Positions 14,678 through 54,859 are shown, counted from the stretch's first letter. The stretch is 64,000 nt of DNA from an uncultured Alphaproteobacteria bacterium (GCA_964455525.1 CAYVWR010000007.1:117169-181168); one strand, 5' to 3'. Notes: generated by a model not told the origin, from the letters alone. Program-made: numbers and translations.

Positions 14678-14753
14678 CGGCCCTCCCTGCGGACCACAAG
14701 CATGGCTCTATCCCGCACCTGAACCTCATACTATCCGCAATGGAATATTCCTC

Positions 14754-25169: not shown

Positions 25170-25475
25170 TGGATCTGTCCTCCTCCGAAACCCGGCCGTT
25201 TTGTTTATAATTTCCTGCTGAGACCGTGTAATTGCCTCTTGTCCATCTATCACCAATTCGTTCATCTATTGACTCTCCTATGGGTACCTATAGAAAAATA
25301 CCGTGGGGGGATAATTCGATACGGTTTCGTGAGAACAACGTGTGGGATATCGGCCTGTTGAATTATATGTAGTACAGTGTTCTTTGTATAGGTACGTGGA
25401 GCATACATTCTGCTGAGGGGTACTCCGGCTCCTCAAGCGGGATGATCGTAGCCGGGTTGTAACTGTATTCCATCT

Positions 25476-26223: not shown

Positions 26224-26328
26224 GCCTGCTGGCTGTAATGCCTTGTAGTGATGGCGTCGGCTGTCACGCAGCGGTTCGGACAGATGCCGGGAGATCAGGG
26301 GCAAATTTCTGATCCTTCTCTCAGAACC

Positions 26329-27594: not shown

Positions 27595-27609
27595 GCCAGG
27601 GACAGTGCC

Positions 27610-28836: not shown

Positions 28837-28991
28837 GGGGGCAGGGATGGGGGTGCGAAATGCCTTTATATTCCCGTTGGCGATTCTTTTTTCAGGGTGA
28901 TGCCGGATCATTGCGTTCTGCTTTGTCGGGAAGCGGTTCGGATATCCGTATCGCCGGTGGTTAGCAACGGATTCCTTGTAATCGGCCAGAT

Positions 28992-29525
28992 ATGTACGAG
29001 ATCATCTTCTATACGTTTGCGGCGATCAGCCTCATTTCCGGTGGGGTGGTGGTCTTTGCGCGCACTATCGCTTCTGCCGCGTTTGCGCTGATGTTTACCT
29101 TCTTTGGTGTGGCAGGGTTATACATCCTGCTGGGTGCCGATTTTGTCGGTGTCACGCAGTTGATGATCTATGTGGGCGGCATTCTGGTCCTCTTTCTTTT
29201 CGGAATGATGCTTACCGCGAACATCGACCGGCTTCGCGAGGAACGTACCGGTGCCGGGCGATCGCTGGCAGGAGTTGTGGTGGCGACGGCGATCGGCGCG
29301 ATGCTTCTCACGGTGATCTGGGGGGTACCGCAGTGGCAGCGGGCCAGACCACGCGAGCTGGAGGAGGGGGGCCGGACCACATCGGTTCTCGGCACGCTGT
29401 TCATGGGCGATTACGCGCTTCTGTTTGTTGCAAGCTCCATTGCGATTCTTGTTGCGCTTGTCGGCGCTGCGATGATAGCACGGTCGGATCGTCTCTCGCC
29501 CGAGAAAGGGGCCGGGCGGATGTGA
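28992..29525 (+). CDS. nuoJ: NADH-quinone oxidoreductase subunit J
   Basis: LLGADFVGVTQLMIYVGGILVLFLFGMML. Confidence 0.93.
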   Translation: MYEIIFYTFAAISLISGGVVVFARTIASAAFALMFTFFGVAGLYILLGADFVGVTQLMIYVGGILVLFLFGMMLTANIDRLREERTGAGRSLAGVVVATAIGAMLLTVIWGVPQWQRARPRELEEGGRTTSVLGTLFMGDYALLFVASSIAILVALVGAAMIARSDRLSPEKGAGRM

Positions 29526-29780
29526 TCCAAGTGGCCCGGAACTGTTGCAACGAGCCTGAACATAGGGTGCAGGAACGTCGGCGTTCGGGCTATCTCATCC
29601 GAGCCGCATAGTGTCCGTAGTGTTTGGGCGATCGGGCGATGTGTGCATCATGTTGCCGCCGTCCACGCCATCGAGCAAGCGCGCATCGGGCACTGCTGGT
29701 GACCGGGTGCCGGTACACATGGTTCGCAGTGGACTCTGACCGATATCTCGCTTCCGTAATTCCAAACTCAGTGGACGATC

Positions 29781-30104
29781 ATGAACCCCATCGGTCTGCC
29801 TCACTTTCTTACGATCGGCGCGATACTCTTCTCGCTTGGTCTGTATGCCATTATCACACGGCGCAATGCGGTGATGCTGCTGATGGGGATCGAGTTGGTG
29901 CTCAACGCCGCGAACGTCAACTTCATCGCGTTCTCACGGTTCAGTGTGGGCGGGGCATCGCAGATGATGGCCGGGCAGGTGGCATCTATCGTTGTGATCG
30001 TGCTGGCGGCATGCGAGGCGGCGGTGGCGCTGGCGATCGTGCTGAATATCTACAAACGCTTCAACACGATCAACGTGGATGAAGTCGACATGCTCCGCGA
30101 TTGA
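29781..30104 (+). CDS. nuoK: NADH-quinone oxidoreductase subunit K
   Basis: RRNAVMLLMGIELVLNAANVNF and AACEAAVALAIV. Confidence 0.95.
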   Translation: MNPIGLPHFLTIGAILFSLGLYAIITRRNAVMLLMGIELVLNAANVNFIAFSRFSVGGASQMMAGQVASIVVIVLAACEAAVALAIVLNIYKRFNTINVDEVDMLRD

Positions 30105-30152
30105 ACCGGACCCCCGGATTCAACACCCTGCATCCGACGACCGAGAGCCTTC

Positions 30153-32546: not shown

Positions 32547-32642
32547 GCCGAGGTCCGATAAGGGGCCTGCCGATGAAACAGCAGCAGGCAGGAGGGGATC
32601 GGGAGATGGCGCGGGCATCAACAATCGCAAATCATACATTCG

Positions 32643-34271
32643 ATGAGTACGTTACTGATTCTCCTCACGTTTCTGCCGCTGGCCGCAATGGTGGGGGTGC
32701 TGGCGCTGCCGAAACGTGCTACCGGCGTTATCCGGTGGTTCTCCCTGGCGGTGGCAGTGGCGCAGGTGGTGATAGCGTTCGTCCTCTGGAGTGCGTTCGA
32801 TTCGTCGCTTGGCGGCATCAACGATCCTGAGAGCTTCCAGTTTGTGACCAGTGCAAACTGGCTCAACCTGAACACATCGGCGCTCGGCAATGTCCGTATT
32901 GATTTTTATCTCGGGGTCGATGGCCTATCGATGCCGATGATTCTCCTGAGCAGCATTGTGATGGCGATTGCCACGGCAAGTTCCTGGACGATCGACAAGA
33001 GCCGCAAGGGCTATTTTGCCCTGCTGCTCCTGTTGAACACAGGGATTATGGGGACGTTTGTCGCGCTCGACTTCTTCCTCTTCTATGTCTTCTGGGAGTT
33101 GATGCTGCTGCCGATGTATTTCCTGATCGGCATCTGGGGTGGTGCACGCCGCGAGTATGCCGCGATGAAGTTCTTCCTCTATACGCTGGCAGGCTCGGTC
33201 TTTATGCTGCTGGCGATCATTGCCCTGTATTACAGCTCGAACCTGACGCCGGGGAGCGGTACGGTTACCCATACCTTCAACATGCTTGCGCTGATGAACC
33301 CGGCCAACTATATCCCCGGCTCGCTTCTTGCCTCCGATGTCGCCGGGAGCTTTGCACTCACCGATCTACGGTTCTGGGCGTTTGCCGCGCTCTTTGTCGG
33401 CTTTGCCATCAAGATCCCGATGTTCCCGTTTCATACCTGGCTCCCGGATGCTCATGTGGAGGCGCCGACTGCCATCTCCGTGATCCTGGCCGGTGTGCTT
33501 CTGAAGCTTGGAGCCTATGGCATCATGCGTGTCTGTTTCTCGATGTTCCCCGATGTTGCCATGAACGATGCGGTGGTGGAGTCGATCGCGATCTTCGGGT
33601 TTGTTGGCATCGTCTACGGTGCGCTCTGCGCATTGGCGCAGAAGGATATGAAGAAGTTGATCGCCTACTCCTCGGTCTCCCATATGGGGTATGTGCTCCT
33701 TGGCCTGGCCTCGATGAACACCATCGGCTTCTCCGGCGCGGTGCTTCAGATGTTCAACCATGGCACGATCACGGCGATGCTCTTTCTGATCGTTGGCGTG
33801 GTGTACGACCGTGTGCACGACCGTACGATTGCAAAGTTCGGCGGGCTGGCGAACATCATGCCGGGCTACTTTTTTATTGCCATCATCGCATTTTTTGCCG
33901 CGCTCGGGCTGCCCGGGCTTTCCGGCTGGTGGTCCGAGGCATTTGTCTTCATCGGCGCCTTCCGCAATGGGACGGTTCGTCTGTGGACAGTGCTTTCGCT
34001 GGTCGGCGTGGTGCTCGGGGCCGCATATATGCTCTGGCTGCTTCAGCGTGCCTTTCTCGGCACACTGAGGACGAGGGAGTGGGAGACACGACTTGCCGAT
34101 CTGACCGGGCGCGAGTGGGCGATGTTTGCCCCTCTGGCCGTTATTGTTGTTGTGCTCGGGGTCTGGCCCCGTCCGGTGCTCGACATGATGAACGGGAGCG
34201 TCAATACGCTGGTGGACGTTCTCAAAGCAAGCAGCAGTGCCGTAACCTCCGCGATGAATCTCCTGCCGTGA
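32643..34271 (+). CDS. nuoM: NADH-quinone oxidoreductase subunit M
   Basis: FWELMLLPMYFLIGIWG, PFHTWLPDAHVEAPT and KKLIAYSSVSHMG. Confidence 0.95.
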   Translation: MSTLLILLTFLPLAAMVGVLALPKRATGVIRWFSLAVAVAQVVIAFVLWSAFDSSLGGINDPESFQFVTSANWLNLNTSALGNVRIDFYLGVDGLSMPMILLSSIVMAIATASSWTIDKSRKGYFALLLLLNTGIMGTFVALDFFLFYVFWELMLLPMYFLIGIWGGARREYAAMKFFLYTLAGSVFMLLAIIALYYSSNLTPGSGTVTHTFNMLALMNPANYIPGSLLASDVAGSFALTDLRFWAFAALFVGFAIKIPMFPFHTWLPDAHVEAPTAISVILAGVLLKLGAYGIMRVCFSMFPDVAMNDAVVESIAIFGFVGIVYGALCALAQKDMKKLIAYSSVSHMGYVLLGLASMNTIGFSGAVLQMFNHGTITAMLFLIVGVVYDRVHDRTIAKFGGLANIMPGYFFIAIIAFFAALGLPGLSGWWSEAFVFIGAFRNGTVRLWTVLSLVGVVLGAAYMLWLLQRAFLGTLRTREWETRLADLTGREWAMFAPLAVIVVVLGVWPRPVLDMMNGSVNTLVDVLKASSSAVTSAMNLLP

Positions 34272-34309
34272 ACGGCTTCGCACGCAACTCCTAACACGTG
34301 TAGGGACAT

Positions 34310-35914
34310 ATGGACATCGATTTCGTACAACTCGCCGCAAGCTTCGCGAGCTTCCTGCCGGAGATCGTTCTTGGATTTTTTTTCGTCGTTGCAGTCCTGG
34401 CCGATTCCTTCTCTGGCGGCTCCAGGCGTGGCGTTGGCTATCTGGCGCTTGTGGGGTTCCTGCTTGCCGGAATCCTCGCGTTTCTCCGTATCGGCCCAAC
34501 CTTGCCGGATGGGCAACTGGAACTGTGGACGCTCGGGGTGAACGATTTCCGTGGCGACTGGATCTTCAAGGCGAGCGATCAGCCGTTTGGTGTGGGGATG
34601 TATGTGATCGACGACTTCGCGATCTTTTTCAAGATCCTTATCGCGATCACCGCAGTGTTTGTGGTGGTCTTCTCCTTGCTCTCGCGTGAGCTGAAAACCG
34701 ATGGGCAGCCGCGTCTCGGCGAGTATTATTCGCTGATGCTTGCGATGACCTTTGGCATGTTCCTGATGGCCGGGGCCAACGATCTGTTCCTGGCCTATCT
34801 TGCCATCGAGATTGTCTCGCTCAGTTCCTATGCCATCGTTGGATTCACCAAGCATGTTCCCCGCTCCAGCGAAGCCTCGATGAAGTATGTGATCTATGGG
34901 GGCGTCTCCTCCGGCATCATGCTCTTTGGCATCTCGCTGATCTATGGTCTGCTCGGGACCACCAACTTCACGCTTATCATGAGCACGCTGGGCACGGCAA
35001 ATGCCGAGGTTGCGCTCGTCAATCCTCTGATGATCGCCAGCGTGATGATCCTTGCCGGGCTTGGCTTCAAGATATCCGTGGCGCCCTTTCATTTCTGGAC
35101 TCCCGATGTCTACGAGGGCGCTCCTATCACCATGACGGCGTTTCTTTCGGTAGCATCGAAGGCCGCCGGGTTTGCCCTGCTGGTCCGCTTTATCGTCACT
35201 GCCTATCCGCCGATGCAGGGGTTCGAGTGGAAGCCGATATTGACAGCGGTCTCCATCCTTACGATGTCGCTAGGCAATCTGGCGGCGTTGCAGCAGACCA
35301 ATCTGAAGCGTCTGCTCGCCTATTCCTCGATCGCCCATGCAGGGTATATGATGATGGGGCTTGTTGTGGGTACTACCTACGGCGTTGCGGCCATCCTTAT
35401 TTATTTCGCCTTCTATCTTGTGATGAACCTGGGGGCATTTTTTGCCGTGCAGAAGGTGGCCGAGCAGATAGACTCCGAGGAGATCGAGGATTACCGGGGC
35501 CTTGGCCCACGGATGCCGCTTGTTGGCGTCTGCATCAGCATCTTTATGATCGCCCTTGTGGGCCTGCCCCCCACATGCGGGTTTATCGGCAAGCTGTTCC
35601 TCTTCAACTCGCTGCTCGATGGCGGGCGCCAGTATATATGGCTGGCGGTGGTCGGCGTTCTTAACTCGGTGATATCGTTGTACTACTATCTGCGCGTTCT
35701 CAAGGTGATGTATATCGACAAGCCGATCGGCACGGCACCGCCGGTGCGGATCGGCTACGGCTCGGTTGCGATCCTCGGCGTGCTGGCCGCAGCAACCATT
35801 CTGTTCGGCCTGCCCAATTTTTTCGGTCCGCTTGTTGAGCTTGCCCAGGGATCGCTCGGCACTCTGGCCCGGCTTCTTCCCGATGGTGGGCAGGGAGCCA
35901 TGGGAGGATTCTAA
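34310..35914 (+). CDS. nuoN: NADH-quinone oxidoreductase subunit N
   Basis: EASMKY, APFHFWTPDVYEGAP, KRLLAYSSIAHAG and SLYYYLRV. Confidence 0.95.
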   Translation: MDIDFVQLAASFASFLPEIVLGFFFVVAVLADSFSGGSRRGVGYLALVGFLLAGILAFLRIGPTLPDGQLELWTLGVNDFRGDWIFKASDQPFGVGMYVIDDFAIFFKILIAITAVFVVVFSLLSRELKTDGQPRLGEYYSLMLAMTFGMFLMAGANDLFLAYLAIEIVSLSSYAIVGFTKHVPRSSEASMKYVIYGGVSSGIMLFGISLIYGLLGTTNFTLIMSTLGTANAEVALVNPLMIASVMILAGLGFKISVAPFHFWTPDVYEGAPITMTAFLSVASKAAGFALLVRFIVTAYPPMQGFEWKPILTAVSILTMSLGNLAALQQTNLKRLLAYSSIAHAGYMMMGLVVGTTYGVAAILIYFAFYLVMNLGAFFAVQKVAEQIDSEEIEDYRGLGPRMPLVGVCISIFMIALVGLPPTCGFIGKLFLFNSLLDGGRQYIWLAVVGVLNSVISLYYYLRVLKVMYIDKPIGTAPPVRIGYGSVAILGVLAAATILFGLPNFFGPLVELAQGSLGTLARLLPDGGQGAMGGF

Positions 35915-36255: not shown

Positions 36256-39200
36256 ATGGTTTTCACTGTCCGGGACGCGGGACGGTCCTTCGACGATTGG
36301 AGAACAGCAGCGATGAATAGTGCACCACACAATAAGGACGGACGTTCAGGTGCGGAGGATAGGCGTCTGGACCCGCCAGCCGATATCGATGGCGTGCTTG
36401 CCGAAGAATGGGCGCAGATTCGGATGCGCCGCCGATTTCTGGACGCGCTTCGTGTGTACATAGCAACCAGAGGCGGACACCGATCCGGTGCTGGAGATCG
36501 CGGCGGGGCAGGCCCAAGGCATCCTCTGCGGGGGAGCGATGAGCTTCCCGGAATATCCGTGCCCCCGGATCTGATGGGGCTTGGGCTTTCCGGCGGTGGC
36601 ATCCGAAGCGCCACCTTCTGTCTTGGGGTAGTGCAGGAGCTTCGTGCCTGCGGCCTTCTTTCCTCGTTCGATTATCTGTCCACCGTTTCCGGCGGCGGAT
36701 ATCTGGGCGGATGGTGGAGCGGATGGCTCTCACGCGAGCCGTTTTTTGTTCCGGCGGAGCTTCTCGATCCGGTTGGTCTGTTGCAGGAACTCTTCCCGGA
36801 TGAGAATTCGATATATCCGAGCACTCATCCGGTGCTTGAGAAGATGCCATCAACTGAAACGCTCAGGCTTCGTGAGCTTGCAAAGGGGCGCCCTGTGGGG
36901 GTGATGGAGCGTCAGCTTCTTGTGGAGTATCTGAACCGTCTGCTTGAGCAGGGGACGCTGTACGCGCAGTTCTCCGAGTTTGCCAGCGAAGGGCTAGAGA
37001 CGTTTGCCGCCGCGCTGCGTGTTATTCATGACGATATGCATGACATCAGAGACGAGGAGGATCAGGCACAGGAGCATTTCGCCTGGGAGCGCTGCGAGCA
37101 GGTGCTTCTTAATAGATTTTTTCTGGAGGAATTGTTCCCCGGATATTTCGATCCGCTCGGGGATATCCATGCGATCTCCTTTCCGCGAGAAGAGGGGATC
37201 GAGCCTGATCGGTATGAGGCGTTCGGGTCGGAGCAGCAGGGGGACGAGCCGTGTGGTGGACCGGGAGCGGCTGGACCGAAGGAGCCGGTACGGCCGGCCT
37301 GGCCGGATATGCAGCCGCGCGGTCGCCGCGATGATGATTCCTCCAATGCCTGGTTTGACCCCATTCATCACCTTCGTCTGTTTGCCAATTATCTGACGCC
37401 CCGCAAAGGCTCGCTTAGCGCCGATACCTGGCGGGCGATCGCGGCGATCTCGCGCAACCTTGTGCTCACATGGCTGGTGCTCGTGCCGATCTTTGTTGCG
37501 GTGATGCTCTGTGGGCAGCTTTATTTTCTCTGGCATCCCGATACCACCGGCGATTTTCTTCCGCCCCGTGATACCATCGCAGTATCGGCCACGACGATGC
37601 CGGCCGATAGTACTGGCGAACCGCTCTCACCGGCTATGGCGGCCACAAAGGGCCTGACCGCAGCAGGGGTGAAGGGGGCTGCCGTCCCGGCTGCCAAACG
37701 GTCGCGTCATGAAGTGTCAAGCTCCGATGTGCTCCTTGCCCGTCTTGCCGCCGCTGCCGTTCCAATCGTTCCGATCCTGGGCTGGATCGTTGTGGTGGTG
37801 ACGGTATGGATCATCTATGGGCATGATACATCCACGGTGCGCGAGAAGATGATGCCATGGGTGGAGCTTGGTGTGGCAATGATGCTTGTCATCTTTCTCT
37901 TCTGGAGTTTTACTGCCGATGGCCTTGCCTTGCCGGGCACAGAGCAGCCGTCGGCGGCGCTTGCAATCCTGAGCTGGTGGTGGTCCAGTTGGCCGCCGCT
38001 GCTGTTCTGGGCGCTGGTGGCTGTGGGGTTGGTGGTGTTCGGGCTGAGAACGTCAGGATCGGCCGGAAAATACCCGGAGGCCCGCAATCCAAGGATCGCC
38101 GGCCAGCTCAAGCGCGAGGTGTGCCGTAACCAGTTGGTTCGCATCCATTCCACGCTTCTTGTTGTCGCGGTCGGCATTGCGATTGTGTTGCTCTTTGCCG
38201 GGTTCGGCCACGAGCTGGTGAACTATCTCTTCTACAGCGCCGATACCAAGAGCACCGTCAGCGATTATCTGAAGGAGATCGGTGGATGGAGCGGCCTTGT
38301 TCTGACGCTTGGCGGGACGATCTATACGCTGATGAAGGCATCGCCTGCCGGGGGAGGGGATACGGGAAATGCTGGCGTGGCGTCGCGGTGGGGAGGGATC
38401 ATTCTGGGCATTACTCCTCCGTTGCTTATCCTGTTCCTGGCGCTCCTCTCGGCGTGGTGGGGACATGGGGTGGTCAGCGGGCTGGTGCCGGATGCCAACG
38501 GCGTTTCGGAGTTCATCATACGGAACCGGCCGTTCCACTATATCACCTTCGTCGGCATTTTCCTCTGCTTCATCTTTACCTGGTACGAGATGACGTTCAT
38601 CAAGGGGAACTGGCCCGCTGTCTGGGTCTTCGGTGACACGGTGCCGAAACGATACATAGGCCATGTGCTGCTTGCGGTTGCCCTGGTCCTGCTTGCACTT
38701 CTGGTCTCCAATGGTGTCTGGTCGATCTATACCGGCACGTTCTATGACTCGCTGACCGGCGATCCCGACCGTCTGTTCTGGGAGTGGTACGAGGGGTTGC
38801 TCCCGTATGTCCTGCTCGGAGCGCATCCTGCACCACGATTCCTTTCGCTTGCCATGGCGATGCTTGCAGGGGGGGCATTGCTCGTACGGCTGCTGTTCCA
38901 CAGGGTTCCGCGCGCAGAGTGTGGTGGGGCCAATCGGTTTGTGTGGGCGCGGCGGCCATCCAATGCTCTGAGTGCACCGGCCTATCGGACCGCATGGGAG
39001 CTTGCCGGACTGACCGTGGTTGTGGTGCTGATCCTTGCCGTGGTGAGCTTTGCGTTGATCCCGCTGGCCACGTCGTGGGAGGCTGGGGTGGCGGTGCTGG
39101 ACTGGCTGAGGATGGATGCCACAAGAAATCTTACCGCCTATGTTCTCTTTGGATTCTGCTTCTGTCTGATCTTTCTGATGGTGGAGCTGTTTTTTGGTGA

Positions 39201-40620
39201 TGGTGCCAATTATCGGTCGATCGGGCTGCTCTGCGGGATCTTTCTCACGCTCGTTGTGCTTCTACGCTTCAGCTATATTCCATGGAATGGCGATGGCGTA
39301 ACAACGGGGGGGACCACCAAGCTCTGGCTTTATCGTGTGCATGCCGCATTCGGGCTTATCACCACACTGCTTACCTGGGCCATCGCCATCGGGTGGACTG
39401 TCAACCCGAATATGGTCTCGCTGCATGGCTTTTATAAAGCGCGCCTTACCAGAGCATATCTCGGCGCATCCAACCGCCGCCGCCGTGGCTCCGGGATGCG
39501 AATCACTGAGGCGGTGGTCGGCGACGATCTCCCGCTTGCCGAGCTTCGGAACTGCCGTCGTGGTGGACCCTACCATCTGGTTAATACGACGCTGAATCTT
39601 GTTGGCGGACGCGATCTTTCCACAGCCCAGCGTTCGGCTGCGAATTTTATTCTGACACAGAATTACTGTGGCTCGCTCCGCACCGGGTATCGTCCCACCC
39701 AGCATTATATGCGAGGAGGGATGACGCTCGGCACGGCGGTCTCCATTTCCGGCGCAGCGGCAAGCCCGAACATGGGCTCGAAAACTCCCACGGCCGCGCT
39801 TGCAATGCTGATGACGTTTTTCAATGTCCGGCTGGGCTACTGGGCACCGACGCCGAATGCCGATGGCTGGGAGTTCGGCCAGGCCCGTCTGTGGCCGTTT
39901 TATACGCTTCGGGAATTCCTGTCGCAGACACATGATCTTTCCAGCTTCTGCTATCTTACCGATGGTGGTCACTTCGATAACACCGGCCTGTACGCGCTTA
40001 TAGAGCGGGGATGCCGGTATATCCTGGTGATTGATTGCGGCGCCGATCCCCAGCCCTGTTTTTCCGACCTTGGCGAAGCAATCCGCCGGTGCCGTATCGA
40101 TTTCGGTGCGGAGTTTGAGCTGGATCTCGACCCCATAGTCTCGGCCGGAAGCGATGGCGTGTGCGCAGCGCGGAGCCACTATGTGGCCGGCACGGTGACC
40201 TATTCGGCGGCCCATCTGCGTCGGCTTCATGGGGTGGATATGGCCAGTGCCAGGGCGATTGATCCGGTAGGGTATATCATCGTGGTGAAACCGATGCGTG
40301 TAGGGAACGAGACCGTGGATGTTCGCCAGTATGGGTTTCAGAATGGCGCTTTCCCCCAGCAGACCACCGCCGATCAATGGTTCGATGAGTCGCAGTTCGA
40401 GAGTTATAGAAAGCTTGGCGAGCGTTCTATCCGGCAGCTTATAAGGGAGACCAGCCAGACCTCGACTGCTCTGCGTGTGCCGCCGAAACCACCGATGCGC
40501 CGGGTGGAGGATGCGGCCGATGCCATCGGCAGGCTTGGGAGAACCTATCTGCCGACAGCCGCCGATCTGCGGCTGATATTCAAGGGGGTACAAGCAGGGC
40601 TGAAGGCCCGGCAGGGCTGA
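36256..40620 (+). CDS. Very large polytopic membrane patatin/cPLA2-like phospholipase
   Basis: GLSGGGIRSATF, STVSGGGY (Ser about residue 145) and LTDGGHFDN (Asp about residue 1236), with many TM segments between; start may be ATG 36313. Confidence 0.8.
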   Translation: MVFTVRDAGRSFDDWRTAAMNSAPHNKDGRSGAEDRRLDPPADIDGVLAEEWAQIRMRRRFLDALRVYIATRGGHRSGAGDRGGAGPRHPLRGSDELPGISVPPDLMGLGLSGGGIRSATFCLGVVQELRACGLLSSFDYLSTVSGGGYLGGWWSGWLSREPFFVPAELLDPVGLLQELFPDENSIYPSTHPVLEKMPSTETLRLRELAKGRPVGVMERQLLVEYLNRLLEQGTLYAQFSEFASEGLETFAAALRVIHDDMHDIRDEEDQAQEHFAWERCEQVLLNRFFLEELFPGYFDPLGDIHAISFPREEGIEPDRYEAFGSEQQGDEPCGGPGAAGPKEPVRPAWPDMQPRGRRDDDSSNAWFDPIHHLRLFANYLTPRKGSLSADTWRAIAAISRNLVLTWLVLVPIFVAVMLCGQLYFLWHPDTTGDFLPPRDTIAVSATTMPADSTGEPLSPAMAATKGLTAAGVKGAAVPAAKRSRHEVSSSDVLLARLAAAAVPIVPILGWIVVVVTVWIIYGHDTSTVREKMMPWVELGVAMMLVIFLFWSFTADGLALPGTEQPSAALAILSWWWSSWPPLLFWALVAVGLVVFGLRTSGSAGKYPEARNPRIAGQLKREVCRNQLVRIHSTLLVVAVGIAIVLLFAGFGHELVNYLFYSADTKSTVSDYLKEIGGWSGLVLTLGGTIYTLMKASPAGGGDTGNAGVASRWGGIILGITPPLLILFLALLSAWWGHGVVSGLVPDANGVSEFIIRNRPFHYITFVGIFLCFIFTWYEMTFIKGNWPAVWVFGDTVPKRYIGHVLLAVALVLLALLVSNGVWSIYTGTFYDSLTGDPDRLFWEWYEGLLPYVLLGAHPAPRFLSLAMAMLAGGALLVRLLFHRVPRAECGGANRFVWARRPSNALSAPAYRTAWELAGLTVVVVLILAVVSFALIPLATSWEAGVAVLDWLRMDATRNLTAYVLFGFCFCLIFLMVELFFGDGANYRSIGLLCGIFLTLVVLLRFSYIPWNGDGVTTGGTTKLWLYRVHAAFGLITTLLTWAIAIGWTVNPNMVSLHGFYKARLTRAYLGASNRRRRGSGMRITEAVVGDDLPLAELRNCRRGGPYHLVNTTLNLVGGRDLSTAQRSAANFILTQNYCGSLRTGYRPTQHYMRGGMTLGTAVSISGAAASPNMGSKTPTAALAMLMTFFNVRLGYWAPTPNADGWEFGQARLWPFYTLREFLSQTHDLSSFCYLTDGGHFDNTGLYALIERGCRYILVIDCGADPQPCFSDLGEAIRRCRIDFGAEFELDLDPIVSAGSDGVCAARSHYVAGTVTYSAAHLRRLHGVDMASARAIDPVGYIIVVKPMRVGNETVDVRQYGFQNGAFPQQTTADQWFDESQFESYRKLGERSIRQLIRETSQTSTALRVPPKPPMRRVEDAADAIGRLGRTYLPTAADLRLIFKGVQAGLKARQG

Positions 40621-43999: not shown

Positions 44000-44369
44000 A
44001 GAAAAAAGAACTGAAAGGTGGTCCGGGTGGAACTTTATCGCCGTTCGTGGGTTTAATGTAAGAACCCCTGCTTTGTCATGCCCATATAGTAAAGAGGCGG
44101 GCCGGGGAAACGAGAAATTTCTTGTACGAGAGTTTCTGAAGCGGCTATATTCGTAGCTGTCCTTGTAACATACCTCTTGGCAGAGTAATCCCATAAAGGT
44201 TTCTATAGTCATACGTGAACGTCGTACAGCGCAACCTCTGCGTCGCTTGCAATTCGGTACAGAGTCGATAGTCATACTGGTAACGACACGATGGCGTGGG
44301 TTTGTATGAGCTGTATTGTCATGGACATGTAAGACTTCCAGTTCCCTGATCTCTATGAGGATTACCTTG

Positions 44370-45455
44370 ATGCGGTCCCCTTTCTATCGCCGCCTTACCC
44401 CGGCGCTTTCAATATTTATCCTTGCGGCTGTTGCGGCTTCGGCCCAGGGTGGTTCCGGTGGCTCTGCTGTTCCCTTTTTGATCATTCCACCGAATGCTCG
44501 CTCGGGCGGCATGGGTGAGGTTGGAACCGGGATTGCGAGGGATATCAACGCGACGTTCTATAATGTTGGCGGCCTTGCCTACCAGCAGAACACGCAGGTG
44601 AGCCTTACATACTCCAAGTGGCTCCCGCAGTTCAACGCCGATCTCCACTACAGCTATCTTAACGGCTCCACCTACGTTAAGGATCTTGACGGCACCATCA
44701 ACGGTCATCTCATATTTCTTGATCTGGGCGAATTCCAGCAGACGTTTGAAACCGGGCAGGCAGGCGCAAAGTTCCGCTCGCTTGAATTTGCTGTCGGGGC
44801 CGGATACTCCACCATGATCGCCGAGGATGTGGGGGCAGGTGTGCAGGCCCGGTATATTCAGTCGAACCTCTCCAGTGTTACCGTCGGCAACGAAAAGCCG
44901 GGCATTGGCCGCAGTGTCGCCTTTGATATCGGTGCGCTCTGGACGCCACGGACCGATTGGGGAATGCCGGAGGATTTTGTGAGTGTTGGCGCTAATCTTG
45001 CCAACATCGGCCCGAAGATCCACTATGTGGATGTGACCCAGGCCGACCCGCTCCCAACCTCGTTCCGTCTTGGTGTGGGCCTTCATCTGCTGAGCGATGA
45101 GTTCAACGATCTTACCGTTGGCATCGACATGAGCAAGCTGCTGGTGAACCGTCCAAGCATCAATGAGGTGGACCCGGTGCCGAAGTCGCTTGTGACAGCC
45201 TGGGGCAACGGCAAGGGGGTGGAGTGGTCGCTTGGCATGGAATACTGGTACGAGCAGCTTGTAGCGCTTCGTGCGGGGTATTTCACCGAGACGGCGGCTG
45301 GTGGCAACCGTAAGTTCTTTACGTTCGGTGCCGGTCTGCGCTACGATATGTATGGATTCGACTTCAGCTTTATCAATACCATCGAGGATTCGCACCCGCT
45401 TGCAAATACTCTCCGCTTCACGTTTGTGGTCGATTTCGATCATGTCACGAAGTAG
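44370..45455 (+). CDS. porV: Type IX secretion system outer-membrane protein PorV
   Basis: SAVPFLIIPPNARSGGMGEVG, YSKWLP, GANLANIGPKIHY, LALRAGYF and HPLANTLRFT fit the PorV/FadL-like barrel. Confidence 0.85.
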   Translation: MRSPFYRRLTPALSIFILAAVAASAQGGSGGSAVPFLIIPPNARSGGMGEVGTGIARDINATFYNVGGLAYQQNTQVSLTYSKWLPQFNADLHYSYLNGSTYVKDLDGTINGHLIFLDLGEFQQTFETGQAGAKFRSLEFAVGAGYSTMIAEDVGAGVQARYIQSNLSSVTVGNEKPGIGRSVAFDIGALWTPRTDWGMPEDFVSVGANLANIGPKIHYVDVTQADPLPTSFRLGVGLHLLSDEFNDLTVGIDMSKLLVNRPSINEVDPVPKSLVTAWGNGKGVEWSLGMEYWYEQLVALRAGYFTETAAGGNRKFFTFGAGLRYDMYGFDFSFINTIEDSHPLANTLRFTFVVDFDHVTK

Positions 45456-45815: not shown

Positions 45816-46718
45816 CTAGGGCTGTTCGGTGATCTCGCGGGCGATGCGCTCTGCTTCCAGCGCTCGATGATCTCGCGGGAAACGCATCCAGAAATCGTTG
45901 TAGGCACGAATAGCCTCATCCTTTCTTCCTGCTTTTGCCAGCGCTTCAGCATGAAAAAAGTGCGCATCCGAGGACTCACTGTTCAGCATGACCGCATATT
46001 CCAGCGATTCTATCGCCTCCTCGGGCCTGCCGATCTTCAGCAGGAGCCTGCCAAGCTTCATCCAGTGGATAAAGGAGTCGGGGAGCAGTTCGGAGATGGC
46101 CTGATAGTTCGCAACGGCCTCTGCCTCCCGGCCGAGTTGTGTCAGGACTTTTGCTCGCTGTACATGTGCCTGCGCATAGCGGGGATTGTGAGCAATGGCG
46201 GTATCTAGCTCTATCAGGGCGGTATCGTAGGACTTCATCATCATATGCGCCTCGGCCAGCGTAACGCGAGCGCGTACAAAGTGTGGCTCCACGCGGAGCG
46301 CTTTCAGCAATGTGCCGATCGCCTTGTCCGGCATCGCATTGTCGAGCTGGGCATCACCCTGGGTAAAGTAGGCCAGCGCCGAGCCGGGGTTTGCGGCAAC
46401 CATCCTCTCGGCAAGCAGCAGTTCCTGATCGTAATGGCGGCGGGCCTTGAGCACCGTGATGATCTTCTGGTACTCGTCAAGCAGCGATGAATCGCGACGA
46501 ATGGCCTGGCGGGCGGCATCCAGCACGGAATCCTGGGAACGGCGCAGAGAGTCCGACGACCGATACATACCGTCGGAGCCTTCACGCTGTGCCGCTGCTG
46601 GGCTGTGGATGCCGAGCAGTGCCAGGACGATCAGCAGCGCGCACGCTGCTGATAGCAGATGCGATGCGTCCCTTTTGTGACGTTGCCCGGATGATCTGTA
46701 AGGTCGATATAGGAACAT
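45816..46718 (-). CDS. Exported tetratricopeptide-repeat protein
   Basis: Hydrophobic signal/anchor and several TPR units (ALAYFTQG, ARVTLAEA, AHVQRAKV, AHFFHAEA). Confidence 0.85.
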   Translation of the reverse strand: MFLYRPYRSSGQRHKRDASHLLSAACALLIVLALLGIHSPAAAQREGSDGMYRSSDSLRRSQDSVLDAARQAIRRDSSLLDEYQKIITVLKARRHYDQELLLAERMVAANPGSALAYFTQGDAQLDNAMPDKAIGTLLKALRVEPHFVRARVTLAEAHMMMKSYDTALIELDTAIAHNPRYAQAHVQRAKVLTQLGREAEAVANYQAISELLPDSFIHWMKLGRLLLKIGRPEEAIESLEYAVMLNSESSDAHFFHAEALAKAGRKDEAIRAYNDFWMRFPRDHRALEAERIAREITEQP

Positions 46719-46822
46719 TCTTTGTGCGATCTCTTCGGCCGGCAAAACATCGTTGTGGCCGATATGGGTACGATGTGACGATAAAAAACTACGATTGATC
46801 GGTAGGCCTTGCAAGAAACTCT

Positions 46823-49250: not shown

Positions 49251-50429
49251 CTAGAATTTTATTCGTGGCGTGATAAAAAGATAGGCGGAATGCTCGAATG
49301 GTTTGCGAGCGCGCAGGGCATCGGCTGCTGCCAGGGTAGCCTCGATCCAGAGTATATGGGTGAGCCGCGCGGAGAATCCCATATGCGGTGCCAGATCGGC
49401 AACGCCCACGCTGAACCGCATATTGCCCTGTGCGCTGATCCAGGTAAGATCGGCGATGGGCGAGAGACGGCGCACCTCGCCATCGGACACCGGTCTCTGC
49501 TCATCGAGCCGTGCGCGAGTGAACTCCTCGTATCCAACGCCCACATCGCCACGGATTGTTCCCAGAAACGTCTCCCATACATCGGCATAGGTTACCTGGC
49601 CGGATAACGTATGGACATAAACGGCATTGCCTGCATGTGGTGCCTGAAATGCCATATCGCCGATTGCGGTGAACCGGACGCGCCCGGTGATCGGGCCGGT
49701 GCGTACCATGGCGGCAGCACCGAAGCCGGGGGCGAGCAGACGGGCGCGAAGCGGGCCGACGCTGGTAGAGCCTCCGGCAAACGGCAGCACGGCCCCGATC
49801 TCCCATGCTGCGGAGGTAAGGCCGATGCGCCAGGTGCCATCGCTCCACCACGGGAGGTTCGACTCCGGTGCACCTGCGGCCACGAACCCACCCAGCGACT
49901 CCGTGAATCGCCAGTCCAGCCGATCGAGCGATACGATCACCCTGCTGCCATCCTCCCAGTTGTCATGCCCGAACGTATCCCATTCGATCACGGTACGTTC
50001 CTCCGATGCTGCATTCCTGCGTGAGAGGAGGAGCGATGCATACAGATCCTCGCCGAGCGCTATGCGTATCGTGGTAGAGGGATAGAGGATGATCTGGCCG
50101 ATGGAGATGGAGATGATCTGTCCCAGCGAATCGCTTGCGCCGAGCCGTGCGCGCAGCCTGTACTGCATCCGAGGTTCGTTGTTCCGCAGATAGCGAAGGC
50201 GGAGGCTATCGGTCTTGACGTAGGTGAAATACCGGTGGAGCGCTGCGGTGGTACGTGCATGCAGTTGCGGATCGGCCAGTTTCCACTCACGTACCTGCGA
50301 CAGTGCCGTGCCCGTGGCACCCAACAGCAGCACAAGCGCTATCATGATAATAGCAGGCAATGGCAGCCAGGAGCCTTGCTGCGCAGTTACCCCATACCGT
50401 TCGTGCAGGATCGGAAGAGATCGGCCCAC
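49251..50429 (-). CDS. Predicted outer-membrane beta-barrel protein B (paralog of the upstream gene)
   Basis: GGAG RBS right at the upstream stop, then GTG 50429; signal-like segment; C-terminus YLFITPRIKF. Confidence 0.65.
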   Translation of the reverse strand: MGRSLPILHERYGVTAQQGSWLPLPAIIMIALVLLLGATGTALSQVREWKLADPQLHARTTAALHRYFTYVKTDSLRLRYLRNNEPRMQYRLRARLGASDSLGQIISISIGQIILYPSTTIRIALGEDLYASLLLSRRNAASEERTVIEWDTFGHDNWEDGSRVIVSLDRLDWRFTESLGGFVAAGAPESNLPWWSDGTWRIGLTSAAWEIGAVLPFAGGSTSVGPLRARLLAPGFGAAAMVRTGPITGRVRFTAIGDMAFQAPHAGNAVYVHTLSGQVTYADVWETFLGTIRGDVGVGYEEFTRARLDEQRPVSDGEVRRLSPIADLTWISAQGNMRFSVGVADLAPHMGFSARLTHILWIEATLAAADALRARKPFEHSAYLFITPRIKF

Positions 50430-50440
50430 GAATGTCTCTC

Positions 50441-51658
50441 CTACCAGATTGAGATGATTGGGGTAATGGAGATCGAATAGGGGGGGAGGTAGGGATCGCG
50501 TGTGCCGAAAACGCCATGGGCGGCGACGGCTGCGCGAACTCCGAGCACAGGCAGTATCTGTTCCTGATAGCTGGCGATGAGGCTCCCTCCGAACAGTTCC
50601 GCGGCACATCGCCGCTGGGTGCTTCCCTCTCTGTCGAGCGTCGCAATCTCGATCCGGGCCATCACCTTCAGGCCGCTCAGCCCCTCGGCAACCGTCCTGT
50701 GCGTGCCGCCATCCTCGGCAACCGGCACCTGCTGTGCCTGATGGTAGCCGATGCCGAGTTTTGCTCTGATCGGCATATTATCCAGCAGGAGAAGCCGTAT
50801 CGGCACGATGCCGTAGGCAAAGGCCGATGTTGCCATATAATACCGTTCCTGCTCGGCTGTTGCCGGCGTGCCGATCTGTTCGGAGATATCGGCGATGGAG
50901 ACGGCTCCGCCGAGCCATTCCTGCTCGAACGAGAGGCCGAACCCATATGCCCCCTCCAGGCCACGGGCAAGCACTACGTTGTCGAGCGAGCCAAGGGCGG
51001 CAGGCACTTCTCCCCAGATTTTCAGCATGCCATATGCGGCTCCGATGCGGATGCGGCCATAGCTGAAGTCGGGAAGGCCGAGTTCTTCATAGCCAAGGCC
51101 CGCCCAGGCATAGGCATCGGACGATATACTGTAGCGGCTTTCATCAAGCCCAAGGCGGATACGCGGGACCCGTTCGCCGCCGAACGTTCTCTGAAAGAGC
51201 AGCGCGGTGGTATCATCCTCGGCATTGCCGATCGCCATGATCGGGGAGACCGATGGATCATAGACGACAACGGATTCGTCGCGCCAGTAATGGTCGCGGC
51301 GAACCAGGCTGGCGATGGTGGCCGTATCGAGAAAATCTCCAAAGCTGGTATCGATCACGATGGTGCCAAGCACAAGGCGGCGCAGTCGTGGGTGGACAAG
51401 GCCGCCGCTCGGCATCATCTCTCCCACCACGGTTACACGCAGCGGATCATCAATCCGTGCGGTGGATTCATTAGGGTCATCGCGGGTAAGCCAGTCGTTG
51501 GCGCGCTCGATAACGCTCTGGGCAAGCTCCTGCTTCAGCCCGCGCCCCTTGTCCTGGATTGTCCAGCTTGCACGATAGATCTCCTGGGCGCTGGCCGTGG
51601 CGCCTGAGGCCATCAATGCGGCAAGGAGAACCAGCGATAGCAGAGATTTAGTTACCAA
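50441..51658 (-). CDS. Predicted outer-membrane beta-barrel protein A
   Basis: Signal peptide MVTKSLLSLVLLAALMASGATASAQ, amphipathic strands and C-terminus YSISITPIISIW; 11-bp overlap with the upstream gene. Confidence 0.7.
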   Translation of the reverse strand: MVTKSLLSLVLLAALMASGATASAQEIYRASWTIQDKGRGLKQELAQSVIERANDWLTRDDPNESTARIDDPLRVTVVGEMMPSGGLVHPRLRRLVLGTIVIDTSFGDFLDTATIASLVRRDHYWRDESVVVYDPSVSPIMAIGNAEDDTTALLFQRTFGGERVPRIRLGLDESRYSISSDAYAWAGLGYEELGLPDFSYGRIRIGAAYGMLKIWGEVPAALGSLDNVVLARGLEGAYGFGLSFEQEWLGGAVSIADISEQIGTPATAEQERYYMATSAFAYGIVPIRLLLLDNMPIRAKLGIGYHQAQQVPVAEDGGTHRTVAEGLSGLKVMARIEIATLDREGSTQRRCAAELFGGSLIASYQEQILPVLGVRAAVAAHGVFGTRDPYLPPYSISITPIISIW

Positions 51659-53216
51659 AGGGATGTATTGAAGAAAATGATATCAACCCCGATTTTCCCG
51701 CGCTGCTTCCCCGCTGATCCAGGGCATAGGCCTTGAACGCAAACTCCTCGCTCGCGCTGCGCCGCCGCAGGCGCCAGTTCTGGGTCATGGTCTTGCTCTT
51801 CTCGTCGTATTTGAAATCAAGCTCCTCGGGATCGAGGACGTTGCCTTCCAGGACAATAAGGCGGGTGCGATTCGGACGCCCCCCCATCATGCCATAACAG
51901 ATCGTTGTCACGGTCACCTCGCCGGAGCCTGCTTGCTCGCGTGGCTTCAGCACGCTTGGCAGCGGCAATGGTTGTACGTCGGTGTATGAGGCCTCTATGA
52001 ACTGGTCGTCGAAATATCGGGTGAAGCGCACCTTGCCCGGCGCTTCCGGCTGGTAGGTAATAACCGAGCGGCGTTCATCCCGGCTGACGATGATTTTGTT
52101 GTTCTCCACCACCTCGACGGCGATGTTCTCGCTTGGCAGACCAGGAGCCGTGAAATCGAGCCGGTAGCTCTGGCCAACAAACATCGACTGGACGATATCC
52201 GGCGATGGAAGTTTTGCCGAGCGAACAACAAATGTAGTAGATACGGGGCGCCCATCCGAATTGCGTGTTGCTGTTACCGTTACCTCGACGCTTCCATCAA
52301 GGGGTGCGGTTCCCATCAGTTCGATAGAAGTGGGGGTGCGCGACATCACCTTGATGCCGGGAGGGTCCACTTTCACATTCAGATCATTGAACGATGCGTA
52401 GCCGGAGAGCGTGATCCTGTTATGCCATGTCTGGCCGCCGGGGACCGGGAGCACAGGGTTGGATGGCTGAATCTCGAATGGCTGCCCAAACCCAAACGGG
52501 GAGAGGAGATCCGAGGGGGTGGCCGGGGGGGGGACCAATGGCCCCAGCGCGGCAATCATGCTGGCGTCGCTCCGATTGCTCGGGGTCTGTAGCAGCGCCA
52601 TCTTGCTGAGCGCGGCCTGATTGTCGATAGCGAAGACATTGACCGTAAACGTGACCGAATCGCTCACGGTGCCACGGCGTTTCATGATCTCGGCGATCTT
52701 GTCGCGGACTGCCGGCTCCAGATCGTCCGGCGGGAGTGGAACCGCCGTTCCCACAACGGTAACGCGGTAGACGGCATTGCGGTCGGTTGGCGATGTGCGC
52801 CACTGGAAGATCGTTGTGCGGTCATCGCGACGCGCCAGCGTAGCATGTGCCTCCGGCGGGAGCGTTGTTCCGGTGAGGCTATCCTGGATGCCAACCACGG
52901 TAAAGCGCACCGAGGAGAAGCGGCCGCGCGCGGTGATCAGGTTCATGCTGTCGCGGCGAAGGCTGGTGCCGGTGGTATCGAGCCGGATGCCTGCGGGGAT
53001 AAAACTGTACAGGAGCGCGGCCTTCTCCGCTCGTACGCGAAAGTCGGGGGCGAGCAGATGCAGGATCGTCTCCTCCAGTTCCGCCTCGTCGTTTCCCTTC
53101 TGCCAGGGGGTTGTGCCGAGCAGAAGGATGATCGCCGAGAGATAGAGGACAAAATAGATCTCGATCGATGCTTTCCGGCGGCGAGGTGCCACCCTCGTCT
53201 GTGCAGGGGTCTTCAT
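51648..53216 (-). CDS. GldM/PorM-like single-TM protein with periplasmic Ig-like domains
   Basis: PRRRKASIEIYFVLYLSAIILLL resembles the GldM N-terminus PRQKMINLMYLVFIAMLA; a long beta-rich periplasmic part includes PLPLP. Confidence 0.6.
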   Translation of the reverse strand: MKTPAQTRVAPRRRKASIEIYFVLYLSAIILLLGTTPWQKGNDEAELEETILHLLAPDFRVRAEKAALLYSFIPAGIRLDTTGTSLRRDSMNLITARGRFSSVRFTVVGIQDSLTGTTLPPEAHATLARRDDRTTIFQWRTSPTDRNAVYRVTVVGTAVPLPPDDLEPAVRDKIAEIMKRRGTVSDSVTFTVNVFAIDNQAALSKMALLQTPSNRSDASMIAALGPLVPPPATPSDLLSPFGFGQPFEIQPSNPVLPVPGGQTWHNRITLSGYASFNDLNVKVDPPGIKVMSRTPTSIELMGTAPLDGSVEVTVTATRNSDGRPVSTTFVVRSAKLPSPDIVQSMFVGQSYRLDFTAPGLPSENIAVEVVENNKIIVSRDERRSVITYQPEAPGKVRFTRYFDDQFIEASYTDVQPLPLPSVLKPREQAGSGEVTVTTICYGMMGGRPNRTRLIVLEGNVLDPEELDFKYDEKSKTMTQNWRLRRRSASEEFAFKAYALDQRGSSAGKSGLISFSSIHPFGN

Positions 53217-54073
53217 CGCCGCGATTCCTTCTGAGCACGTAGGTGAACCGGCACGGCATCCTCGGCAGCATCGTGCCTGTCGCGCCCGACCATACGCTCG
53301 AACTCCCTGCGGACATAAAATTCCAGCTCCTTGCCGAACAGCATGTCGATCCGGCTGTTCATGGATTCGATGGAGGAGACAAGCTGCGACAGCAGCGAAT
53401 TGGTCGTCTCAAGACGCTCGGCATGTGCCTCCAGCAGATTTAATCCCTGAATGGCCGAGACGCGCTGGGCAAGCTCCCGAAGGCCCTCCTCCTGGGCTTT
53501 TGCCGACTGCTCAAGGCGCATGCCGATGCCTGCATAGGAGCTGCCGATATCCTCAAGCTCGCCGAGCACCTCGCGGATCACCTGGCGATCCTCCGATCCG
53601 ACATCCTCCTCCTGATGCCGTGTGTCGTTCTCGGCGACCGGGTGTGCTGGCGCATCATCCTCCGGCGCATAGAACAGCACGGTAAAGAGCATAAGCAGCA
53701 TGAACGCTTCGATGGCGATGCCGATCAGGGCCACGCGCTCGGAGAGAAGGCCGGCAAAACGAAGGCCAAGGAATACTAGGAGGATCACCGCGCCGAAGTA
53801 GACAAGCGCCTGCACATTGTTGTAGTAGTGCCGGACGATGATCTCCTCCATGAAGATCCGGGTGCCCACACGGGTTCCGAGCGGATGCCCGATCTTGTAG
53901 GATGTATCGGTGGCCGTCACCCGAAGCTCGCTGCCGGAGGCAGCCTTCCGCCAGAGTTGCCAGAGCGATGGCAGTACGGCGCTACGCTGCTCCACGATCA
54001 GATCGTGCCAGTATTCCTGGTATGCCGTGCGTCCTGCTGCCGTTGCAAGGTTGGAGATAGTTTTCTGGTTCAT
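53213..54073 (-). CDS. GldL/PorL-like two-TM protein with cytoplasmic helical tail
   Basis: YFGAVILLVFLGLRF...IGIAIEAFMLLMLFTVLFYAP resembles GldL GAAVVIVGALFK...IGLLTEALIFALSAFEP, including the TM2 Glu; ATGA overlap with the next gene. Confidence 0.65.
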   Translation of the reverse strand: MNQKTISNLATAAGRTAYQEYWHDLIVEQRSAVLPSLWQLWRKAASGSELRVTATDTSYKIGHPLGTRVGTRIFMEEIIVRHYYNNVQALVYFGAVILLVFLGLRFAGLLSERVALIGIAIEAFMLLMLFTVLFYAPEDDAPAHPVAENDTRHQEEDVGSEDRQVIREVLGELEDIGSSYAGIGMRLEQSAKAQEEGLRELAQRVSAIQGLNLLEAHAERLETTNSLLSQLVSSIESMNSRIDMLFGKELEFYVRREFERMVGRDRHDAAEDAVPVHLRAQKESRR

Positions 54074-54415
54074 GCAGGCTTGAAAAATAGCATATCGCAA
54101 CTGGGCGGACAATGGCTTGGACGGGTCATCGGACGAAGATAGCGCCTATCAGGGGTACTGCCCGCACCATTGTTGCAACAGTGCTCCGGTCTCTTCGGTG
54201 GATGCCGCAACCTATCCTGATGTGCCCAGATATCAAGACGGTAAACGCGATGAGAACATTGGCACCGGCGCGCACCATCCGGGGGCTGCTGTGTGCGCGG
54301 CCGGTTCAGCCCAGGGCGAGCGCTTGTGCGGGGCCTGCTCCCGGATTCTTGTGGATCGGGCGCGCCTCCCGTACATTGCCCGCGGAATGTCCCGGTACCC
54401 TCTTTCTCACTCAAG

Positions 54416-54859
54416 ATGCCTTATCCTATGATACTCTGCCCAACATGCCTGCACGCCGTTTCGGACGAGCTTGAGCGTTGCCCATTCTGTTCCGAGGAAC
54501 TTGAGGGGGCCGAGGAGACGGAGCTTGATGAGGTGACCCAATGGAAGATCATTCGCACGGTCAGCACCGAGATCGAGGCCCGGCTGATCGCCGGAAGACT
54601 TCGGGCTTATGGGGTTCCCGCGTTTGTTCTTTCGCAGGTCGATAGCACGCGCAATTTCACGGTTGGCGCCCTTGCCATCGCCAAGATATTCATTCCAGAT
54701 ACGAGAATGGCCGAGGCGGATGCTATCCTTTCGGGGCCGCCGGATGATCCGGCATTTTTTTATCCGCAGGAGCATACCGAAACCGAACGCAACGATGAGG
54801 ATGGGGGGGGCGATCGTGGTGAGCATGGCGATATCGACCAACCCTGGCCCCAGCCCTGA
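54416..54859 (+). CDS. Zinc-ribbon plus DUF2007-like protein
   Basis: CPTC..CPFC, followed by EARLIAGRLRAYGVPAFV..KIFIP..EADAIL. Confidence 0.6.
   Translation: MPYPMILCPTCLHAVSDELERCPFCSEELEGAEETELDEVTQWKIIRTVSTEIEARLIAGRLRAYGVPAFVLSQVDSTRNFTVGALAIAKIFIPDTRMAEADAILSGPPDDPAFFYPQEHTETERNDEDGGGDRGEHGDIDQPWPQP

Follow-up and report, generated by a model that had tools for sequence, protein, structure and literature searches.

Type IX secretion is thought to need a proton motor formed by GldL and GldM (PorL and PorM), together with a ring of PorK and PorN. In this motor (GldL5-GldM2 or PorL-PorM, which also serves gliding in Bacteroidota; PDB 6YS8, 7SAT, 7SAU, 7SAX and 7SAZ, and 6EY4, 6EY5 and 7CMG for periplasmic GldM/PorM) the L subunit crosses the membrane as two helices connected by a short periplasmic loop, with both ends in the cytoplasm. 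It has a basic residue at the end of the first transmembrane helix (TM1), a glutamate in the second (TM2) and a helical tail. The L gene is followed directly by that of an M protein of ~510-520 amino acids (aa), which has one N-terminal membrane helix, with a basic residue and then a tyrosine, and a multi-domain periplasmic part. We have analyzed a stretch of 64,000 nucleotides (nt) of DNA from a Kapabacteria genome (GCA_964455525.1 CAYVWR010000007.1:117169-181168, deposited as an uncultured Alphaproteobacteria bacterium; hereafter the window), in which four genes on the minus strand at 49251-54073 have an arrangement of this kind. The first two, g1 (L-like) and g2 (M-like), share all of the above features with L and M, while their partners are two novel paralogous secreted proteins (g3 and g4) in place of the GldK/PorK lipoprotein and the GldN/PorN ring. 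We tentatively favor the reading that the products of the four genes form a single module spanning the envelope, which is analogous to the GldL/GldM motor and may possibly be related to it very remotely.

The likeness to GldLM extends to the pattern of conservation, which is highest in the membrane helices of both pairs of proteins, and to the presence of type IX components in the lineage. It does not extend to the sequences, where neither direct nor profile comparison gives significant similarity. Further afield, the general logic would be shared with the 5:2 stators MotAB, ExbBD, TolQR and ZorAB, where a membrane subunit in multiple copies surrounds a single-helix partner. In these stators the partner bears or faces a protonatable acid near the cytoplasmic end of the helix (which may be compared with Glu19 of g2 and Glu122 of g1), and energy is passed to the outer envelope. 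In contrast to the stators, whose membrane subunits have three or four membrane helices, g1 has two, and g2 has no OmpA-like or TonB-like domain. In the Agl-Glt gliding machinery of Myxococcus a TolQR-like motor in the inner membrane acts via periplasmic parts on the paralogous outer-membrane barrels GltA and GltB. The resemblance lies in the combination of inner-membrane motor, periplasmic link and paralogous outer-membrane proteins, while the TolQR-like nature of the motor is a difference; no homology to the Glt proteins was seen using Pfam.

The four genes are all unannotated, and are co-oriented and either overlap or abut. The stop codon of g1 (53213-54073, 286 aa, ATG start) and the start codon of g2 (51648-53216, 522 aa, ATG start) overlap in an ATGA at 53213-53216 (i.e. 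the TGA of g1 and the ATG of g2; the junction sequence is CGGCGATGAAGACC). Genes g2 and g3 (50441-51658, 405 aa) overlap by 11 nt at 51648-51658, with the TAA stop codon of g2 at 51648-51650 and the TTG start codon of g3 at 51658. At the junction of g3 and g4 (50429-50443, TAGGAGAGACATTCGTG) the TAG stop codon of g3 lies inside an AGGAG Shine-Dalgarno-like motif, 8 nt ahead of the GTG at 50429 with which g4 begins (49251-50429, 392 aa). No promoter-like or terminator-like signals above background were found between the four genes. A preliminary description of the window, made from its sequence, had noted four co-oriented genes that looked translationally coupled by the ATGA, the 11-nt overlap and a ribosome-binding site built into a stop codon, as well as a divergent gene upstream, and in each respect we find it to be accurate. 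The upstream gene encodes a DUF2007 protein, at 54293-54859 on the plus strand.

Gene callers applied to identical metagenomic contigs give lengths of 286, 522, 390 and 392 aa for g1 to g4. Every homolog of g1 opens with MNQ.T, which corresponds to the ATG at 54073; a TTG at 54112 was rejected as the start. The 390-aa version of g3 begins at a downstream ATG and cuts off a signal peptide that all orthologs have. This conserved peptide (MVTKSLLSLVLLAALMASGATASA/QE) is obtained solely from the TTG start, and the TTG at 51658 was therefore kept. An open reading frame of 452 aa running to 50609 was rejected for g4 in favor of the 392 aa given by the gene callers, because the stop codon of g3 sits in the AGGAG motif and is then followed by the GTG at 50429.

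An AlphaFold2 model of g1 based upon an alignment of 27 sequences has a mean predicted local distance difference test (pLDDT) score of 76. It comprises a small N-terminal domain (residues 1-61, cytoplasmic), a helical hairpin (66-106 and 112-135) with a five-residue loop and, after an acidic linker that is disordered (136-156), one long helix (159-267). The protein lacks a signal peptide and has large soluble parts at each end; both termini of the hairpin are placed in the cytoplasm. The membrane segments are VQALVYFGAVILLVFLGLRFAG and VALIGIAIEAFMLLMLFTVLFYAP, i.e. TM1 at residues 87-108 (nt 53750-53815) and TM2 at residues 114-137 (nt 53663-53734). The codon of Glu122 is at 53708-53710, in the motif GIAIEAF of TM2, so that the glutamate lies within the membrane helix in the model and not outside the membrane. 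The two helices, the glutamate and the helical tail had all been recognized in the preliminary description, as had an N-terminal extension. The latter is an additional domain of about 60-85 aa that distinguishes g1 from GldL.

The membrane parts of g1 are the best conserved, with consensus fractions of 0.92 in TM1 and 0.84 in TM2, compared with 0.30 in the linker. Arg105 and Glu122 are invariant (27/27 family members), and among 75 remote relatives G94, A95, L98, G103, R105 and E122 are each at least 90% conserved. After TM2 come the residues YAPEDD and then the acidic linker, which is not conserved. Matches of the tail to coiled-coil families (Baculo_PEP_C and DUF16) were rejected as compositional. 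A Foldseek search with the monomer model of g1 gave nothing under an E value of 2.

The protein encoded by g2 has the N-terminus APRRRKASIEIYFVLYLSAIILLLGTTP, with a basic cluster (R12-K15) and a single membrane helix (nt 53106-53183) containing S17, E19, Y21, F22 and Y25, such that Tyr21 and Tyr25 both lie within the helix. In the AlphaFold2 model (25 sequences, mean pLDDT 79, and above 90 over residues 250-515) the membrane helix occupies residues 18-34 and is followed by a helix at 43-58. Beyond this there is a mixed beta domain (60-196), a disordered linker (197-246) and three confidently predicted beta-sandwich domains over residues 247-515 (247-334, 344-415 and 426-515). The model thus agrees with the earlier assignment of one N-terminal membrane helix and a long beta-rich periplasmic part, and supports g2 being a bitopic protein with a beta-rich rod that would span the periplasm. 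The juxtamembrane and membrane stretch RRRKASIEIYFVLYLSAIILLLGTTP is the most conserved part, with a consensus fraction of 0.86 against 0.45-0.59 for the periplasmic domains. In GldM the C-terminal part consists of three immunoglobulin-like (Ig) domains, D2-D4. Foldseek with the g2 model returned generic Ig strings only (such as titin and NCAM), with no GldM or PorM among the 50 matches listed, such a whole-model search being uninformative for proteins built as beads on a string.

Real GldM has the same pattern of conservation as g2, with a consensus fraction of 0.92 in its membrane helix compared with 0.50-0.66 elsewhere, and the pattern of GldL is that of g1. Note that preferential conservation of the membrane helices, as found in g1, g2, GldL and GldM, is not expected of a mere anchor.

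The C-terminal ~230 residues of g3 and g4 are homologous (hhalign 97.9%, E = 4.9e-13). In g3 the signal peptide is followed by a conserved N-terminal domain (~24-153), and then by ~240 aa that form the C-terminal domain, the paralog of the one in g4. In g4 the signal peptide has a long N-region, and the C-terminal domain ends in FEH..LF(I/L)TPR(I/V)KF in the family alignment. The terminal Phe is present in 13 of the 14 g4-type sequences compared, from two-gene cassettes, while the corresponding residue of g3 is variable (W, R, Q, F, K or N). Neither protein has a lipobox. Scanning Pfam, whose models include PorV and PorP_SprF, with the g3 and g4 families (29 sequences, E up to 10) gave no match for g4 and one for g3 at 4.5; profile searches of the PDB with both gave no real match; and hhalign against 48 sequences of GldK, an FGE-sulfatase-like lipoprotein, and 43 of GldN from canonical loci, and against Kapabacteria PorV, gave less than 1%. 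Thus g3 and g4 are not ordinary homologs of PorK, PorN, PorP or PorV. The preliminary description had called them two novel beta-barrel paralogs. The paralogy and the novelty stand, and no sign emerged of the ordinary PorN or PorP homologs that would have undermined its proposal. From the signal peptides and the conserved C-terminal Phe of g4, both are probably outer-membrane proteins and may be beta-barrels. The g4 family is found in Kapabacteria only, with every member annotated 'hypothetical'.

The closest named genome is a Candidatus Kapaibacteriota metagenome-assembled genome (MAG), in which g1 has 84% identity. The close homologs found for g1, g2 and g4 come from MAGs labeled Kapabacteria, Chlorobi or Ignavibacteriae; all carry the annotation 'hypothetical' and none has a Pfam domain. 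We looked at 17 GTDB species genomes, in one of which the contig ends after g2, while in two g3 and g4 are displaced; the order g1-g2-g3-g4 is intact in 14 of the 16 that are informative. Searching 1.84 billion proteins with the g1 profile revealed at least 150 representative clusters at E < 1e-3, 59 of them at < 1e-10, the remote relatives retaining the core alone (profile positions ~64-155). Two distant metagenomic loci have a different gene order, i.e. X1-X2-L-M in L105 (2713-10176) and X1-X2-L in L110 (2941-6754), where X1 and X2 match the g3 and g4 hidden Markov models (E from 1e-14 to 1e-10) and L matches g1 (5e-20 and 3e-17). The M protein, present in L105 only, matches g2 (1e-11) and keeps YFVLYL; in L110 L is followed by a gene without likeness to M, at which the contig ends. 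In a divergent lineage a single gene of 485 aa (L001, 11574-13031) joins a g3-like N-terminal domain to a g4-like C-terminal domain and replaces the two genes. The linkage of the families survives a change of gene order, which argues for functional coupling. This co-inheritance is the strongest evidence that the four proteins work together.

Three further observations were made on these relatives. The X1 protein of L110 has a lipoprotein box (FAGC). In the copy of the fused gene from an NCBI genome (L002, 11574-13030) the 485-aa gene is split into parts of 333 and 113 aa, for which a frameshift or an error of assembly may be responsible. A second L/M subfamily lies directly after lptF/lptG and is without X1 and X2 (L103, 3389-4438; L104, 2583-4211; L109, 7001-9182); the N-terminus of its M-like protein keeps RRK..(V/I)E(I/L)YF(I/L)LYL.

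Kinship with known motors was assessed using genuine GldL and GldM chains taken from PDB entries and 80 canonical gldKLMN loci from metagenomes, giving alignments of 77 GldL, 56 GldM, 48 GldK and 43 GldN sequences. Scans of Pfam, NCBIfam and PADLOC with the four proteins and sets of 27, 25, 15, 14 and 75 family members gave nothing meaningful. In particular, g1 with its 27 close and 75 remote members gave no GldL match in Pfam or NCBIfam (E up to 10). The Pfam MotA_ExbB and ExbD models and the PADLOC Zorya models matched none of the 27 + 75 g1-type and 25 g2-type sequences, and placement of g1 and g2 in an ExbB/TolQ or flotillin family, which would have told against the original proposal, did not occur. 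PDB profile searches with g1 to g4 returned coiled-coil or pilin noise, and a match of g2 to GldM_3rd (Pfam, E = 0.096) was rejected because it was seen in one of 25 family members. Widening of the g1 profile through the 1.84 billion representatives never arrived at a protein with a GldL domain.

Comparison of the hairpin regions of g1 and GldL gave a score of 16.7, which was reached by 3/200 column shuffles and is marginally above that expected from composition alone. With the profile of the 75 remote relatives, the GldL chain 7sax_C ranked 12th among 177,635 PDB sequences (E = 0.059), where the other top matches are coiled coils and 7sax_C is the sole envelope-motor protein. The alignment is in register across the whole hairpin (Y.GAA..I..GL(R/K)...LxxE), and in both g1 (G94-R105) and GldL (G16-K27) Gly-Ala and the basic residue are 11 residues apart. 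In every profile alignment Glu122 of g1 is paired with Glu49 of GldL. As the alignment itself is not significant, the match of Glu122 and Arg105 to Glu49 and Lys27 is best regarded as a positional analogy. In g2 the sequence RRKxS(I/V)E(I/V)YFVLYLSA places an Arg 8 residues ahead of a Tyr, as in GldM (Arg9 and Tyr17), with a profile alignment at the level of shuffled sequences. The architecture and the logic of the key residues match those of GldLM; for g1 this does not amount to proof of homology, and for g2 homology is not supported.

A number of results weigh against the reading that we favor. The g1 family profile found no GldL in the PDB using hmmsearch. With hhalign, g1 was matched to GldL at 25.8% (five PDB chains), 6.9% (77 sequences) and 4.3% (a 164-sequence superfamily core), all sub-threshold; all three alignments span TM2. 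The motif of the GldL cage that follows TM2 (FEP..(D/E).DW..VYPEL) is absent from g1; the consensus fraction of the cage is 0.82 in GldL, compared with 0.30 for the corresponding linker of g1. For the role of the cage see 10.1101/2022.01.28.478170. For g2 there was no GldM or PorM match in the PDB, the best hhalign result against GldM was 9.7% over a single Ig domain, and the score of the N-terminal helices of the two proteins was equaled by 30/200 column shuffles (i.e. chance level). Moreover, the AlphaFold2 model of g2 has the beta domain 60-196, after the helix at 43-58, in place of the helical D1 of GldM. The distant homolog in L105 does not retain Glu19 of g2. In one Kapabacteria clade g1-g2 is separated from g3 by ~5.5 kb of other genes, including that for a 752-aa membrane protein (L014, 5816-11366), and in a second member of this clade (L015, 10384-16783) the 6.4 kb downstream contains neither g3 nor g4. 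Lastly, the genes between g4 and a nearby gene for PorV have housekeeping functions, so that the linkage to PorV discussed below may be plain clade synteny. The suggestion in the preliminary description that g1 and g2 are a distant LM motor, taken as a statement of homology, was consequently not upheld: Pfam, NCBIfam and the PDB are negative, and hhalign gives 4-26% for g1 and under 10% for g2.

If the four proteins nevertheless form a module analogous to GldLM, it would possibly be ion driven and might possibly serve type IX secretion. By analogy with the known motors, g1 would oligomerize in the inner membrane via its two-helix hairpin, and the single membrane helix of g2 would sit against or within the g1 assembly. 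Protonation and deprotonation of the buried Glu122 of g1, acting together with Arg105 and with polar residues on one face of the g2 helix (Ser17, Glu19, Tyr21 and Tyr25), could couple a flow of ions to movement of g2. The four beta-sandwich domains of g2 would then act as a rod conveying the movement, either as force or as conformational change, over the periplasm. This rod would touch g3 and g4, which probably form a hetero-complex in the outer membrane. The most likely output would be type IX secretion or the handling of surface proteins.

The hairpin is also compatible with a quite different function. Arg105 and Glu122 both lie near the periplasmic half of one hairpin and so could pair as a structural salt bridge, in which case the four proteins might be a passive trans-envelope scaffold or integrity tether that involves no coupling to ions and is functionally closer to accessory parts of Tol-Pal or to outer-membrane tethers. 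There is no detectable relation to known motor families, and the neighboring genes are those of envelope housekeeping (CdsA and YceG/MltG in this window, and lptFG beside the paralogous L/M pairs), both of which would be in keeping with such a role. Yet there is extreme conservation on nearly all faces of the three membrane helices and in the cytoplasmic tail, which is more typical of a working core; real GldL and GldM show the same pattern. In addition, buried acids kept across remote relatives are a hallmark of ion-coupled transducers. We therefore regard a passive scaffold as possible but on the unlikely side. Were it correct, the cassette would still encode a clade-wide envelope complex.

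The register of the hairpin raises the question of true orthology, i.e. that g1 and g2 are extremely diverged GldL and GldM forming the type IX motor of Kapabacteria, in which g3 and g4 have taken the place of the PorK/PorN ring. The hairpin is in register with that of GldL in all alignments (Y, GA, the basic residue at the end of TM1, the glutamate of TM2 and an acidic Pro-Glu after TM2), and it was a GldL chain that stood alone among envelope-motor proteins in the top PDB matches. The L-then-M order with an overlapping start is as in gldL-gldM, the lineage has PorV and C-terminal domain (CTD) cargo, and the literature notes type IX translocons of Ignavibacteria without a recognizable motor (PMC11705866). 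Against this, every score is under accepted thresholds, the cage motif is missing from g1, and g2 lacks a helical D1 and has no significant similarity to GldM anywhere. The second L/M subfamily, which lies beside lptFG without barrel genes, indicates that the family is not a simple one-to-one replacement. Orthology in this strict sense thus seems unlikely to us.

The connection of the cassette with type IX secretion is plausible on circumstantial grounds. Its flanks have the order CdsA, DUF2007, cassette, hydrolase, YceG, tetratricopeptide repeat (TPR) protein, PorV. The PorV equivalog (44316-45455, plus strand) is 4 kb beyond g4, and matches Pfam PorV at E = 8e-27 and NF033710 with 260 bits compared with a cut-off of 250, so the porV gene that had been noted in the window is confirmed. 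PorV has the same position at 8 of ~9 informative Kapabacteria loci, while in divergent genomes the cassette does not adjoin it. A CTD cargo had also been noted. The candidate is a protein of 774 aa (4969-7293, minus strand) with a full-length Por_Secre_tail match (E = 1.1e-4); at 22.8 bits this is under the Pfam cut-off of 27, and the protein is thus a probable cargo. The remainder of the protein has no Pfam match. In L105 a divergent gene upstream of the cassette encodes a beta-propeller protein of 694 aa that has a type IX C-terminal domain. Melioribacter and Ignavibacterium are reported to have PorV, SprA and Plug and no other type IX protein (PMC11705866).

Given PorV and the probable CTD cargo in the window, and such relatives with a translocon only (PMC11705866), a cassette with L/M anatomy and its own secreted partners is a concrete candidate for a motor. 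At its boldest the proposal would be that L-M-X1-X2 is the missing type IX engine of those lineages (Kapabacteria, Ignavibacteria and their FCB relatives) in which SprA and PorV occur and no GldKLMN is recognizable. Such an engine would be ion driven, either descended from GldLM or convergent with it, with an Ig rod that works not on the PorK/PorN ring but on a novel outer-membrane complex of two proteins. In that full form we consider it distinctly unlikely. The cassette may account for the powering of secretion in these lineages, or it may encode a separate machine of the envelope. In both cases the few known families of envelope energy transducers would gain a new one, and four protein families that have no Pfam model would acquire a testable role.

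A tie to type IX secretion would be lost altogether if the genes encoded a dedicated system for export or insertion of another envelope component (a lipoprotein, polysaccharide or lipid), with g3 and g4 as the outer-membrane conduit and g1 and g2 as the platform. This might account for the failure of the g3 and g4 families to match any type IX component, for cassettes that lie away from PorV in divergent genomes and for the paralogous L/M pairs adjoining lptFG. But the operon contains no ATPase, permease or substrate gene, and the predicted structure of g2 is an Ig-like rod rather than a channel or lipid-binding groove. Furthermore, type IX genes or cargo are found nearby in two independent contexts, and we judge a dedicated exporter to be very improbable. 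Least probable of all, by our estimate, is that the genes are adjacent through clade-wide synteny alone and the four proteins do not work together: the flanking housekeeping genes are equally syntenic in Kapabacteria and g1-g2 is apart from g3/g4 in L014 and L015, but the start and stop codons overlap, all four families are again found side by side, though permuted, in distant lineages, and one lineage has merged the g3-like N-domain and g4-like C-domain in a single gene.

Some other features of the window were noted. The TPR protein (45816-46814, minus strand) is secreted and its gene is divergent to that of PorV; the PorV-TPR-YceG group next to the cassette is conserved throughout Kapabacteria. 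A role as a type IX accessory of the PorW/PorE type is conceivable for the TPR protein. Two very long open reading frames on the plus strand, at 36256-40620 (1454 aa) and 14598-17495 (965 aa), match nothing in Pfam or NCBIfam and lack an obvious signal peptide, and are candidate genes. Upstream of the cassette region there is a respiratory complex I (nuo) operon at 23958-35914, in which subunits D, H, I, L, M and N were identified.

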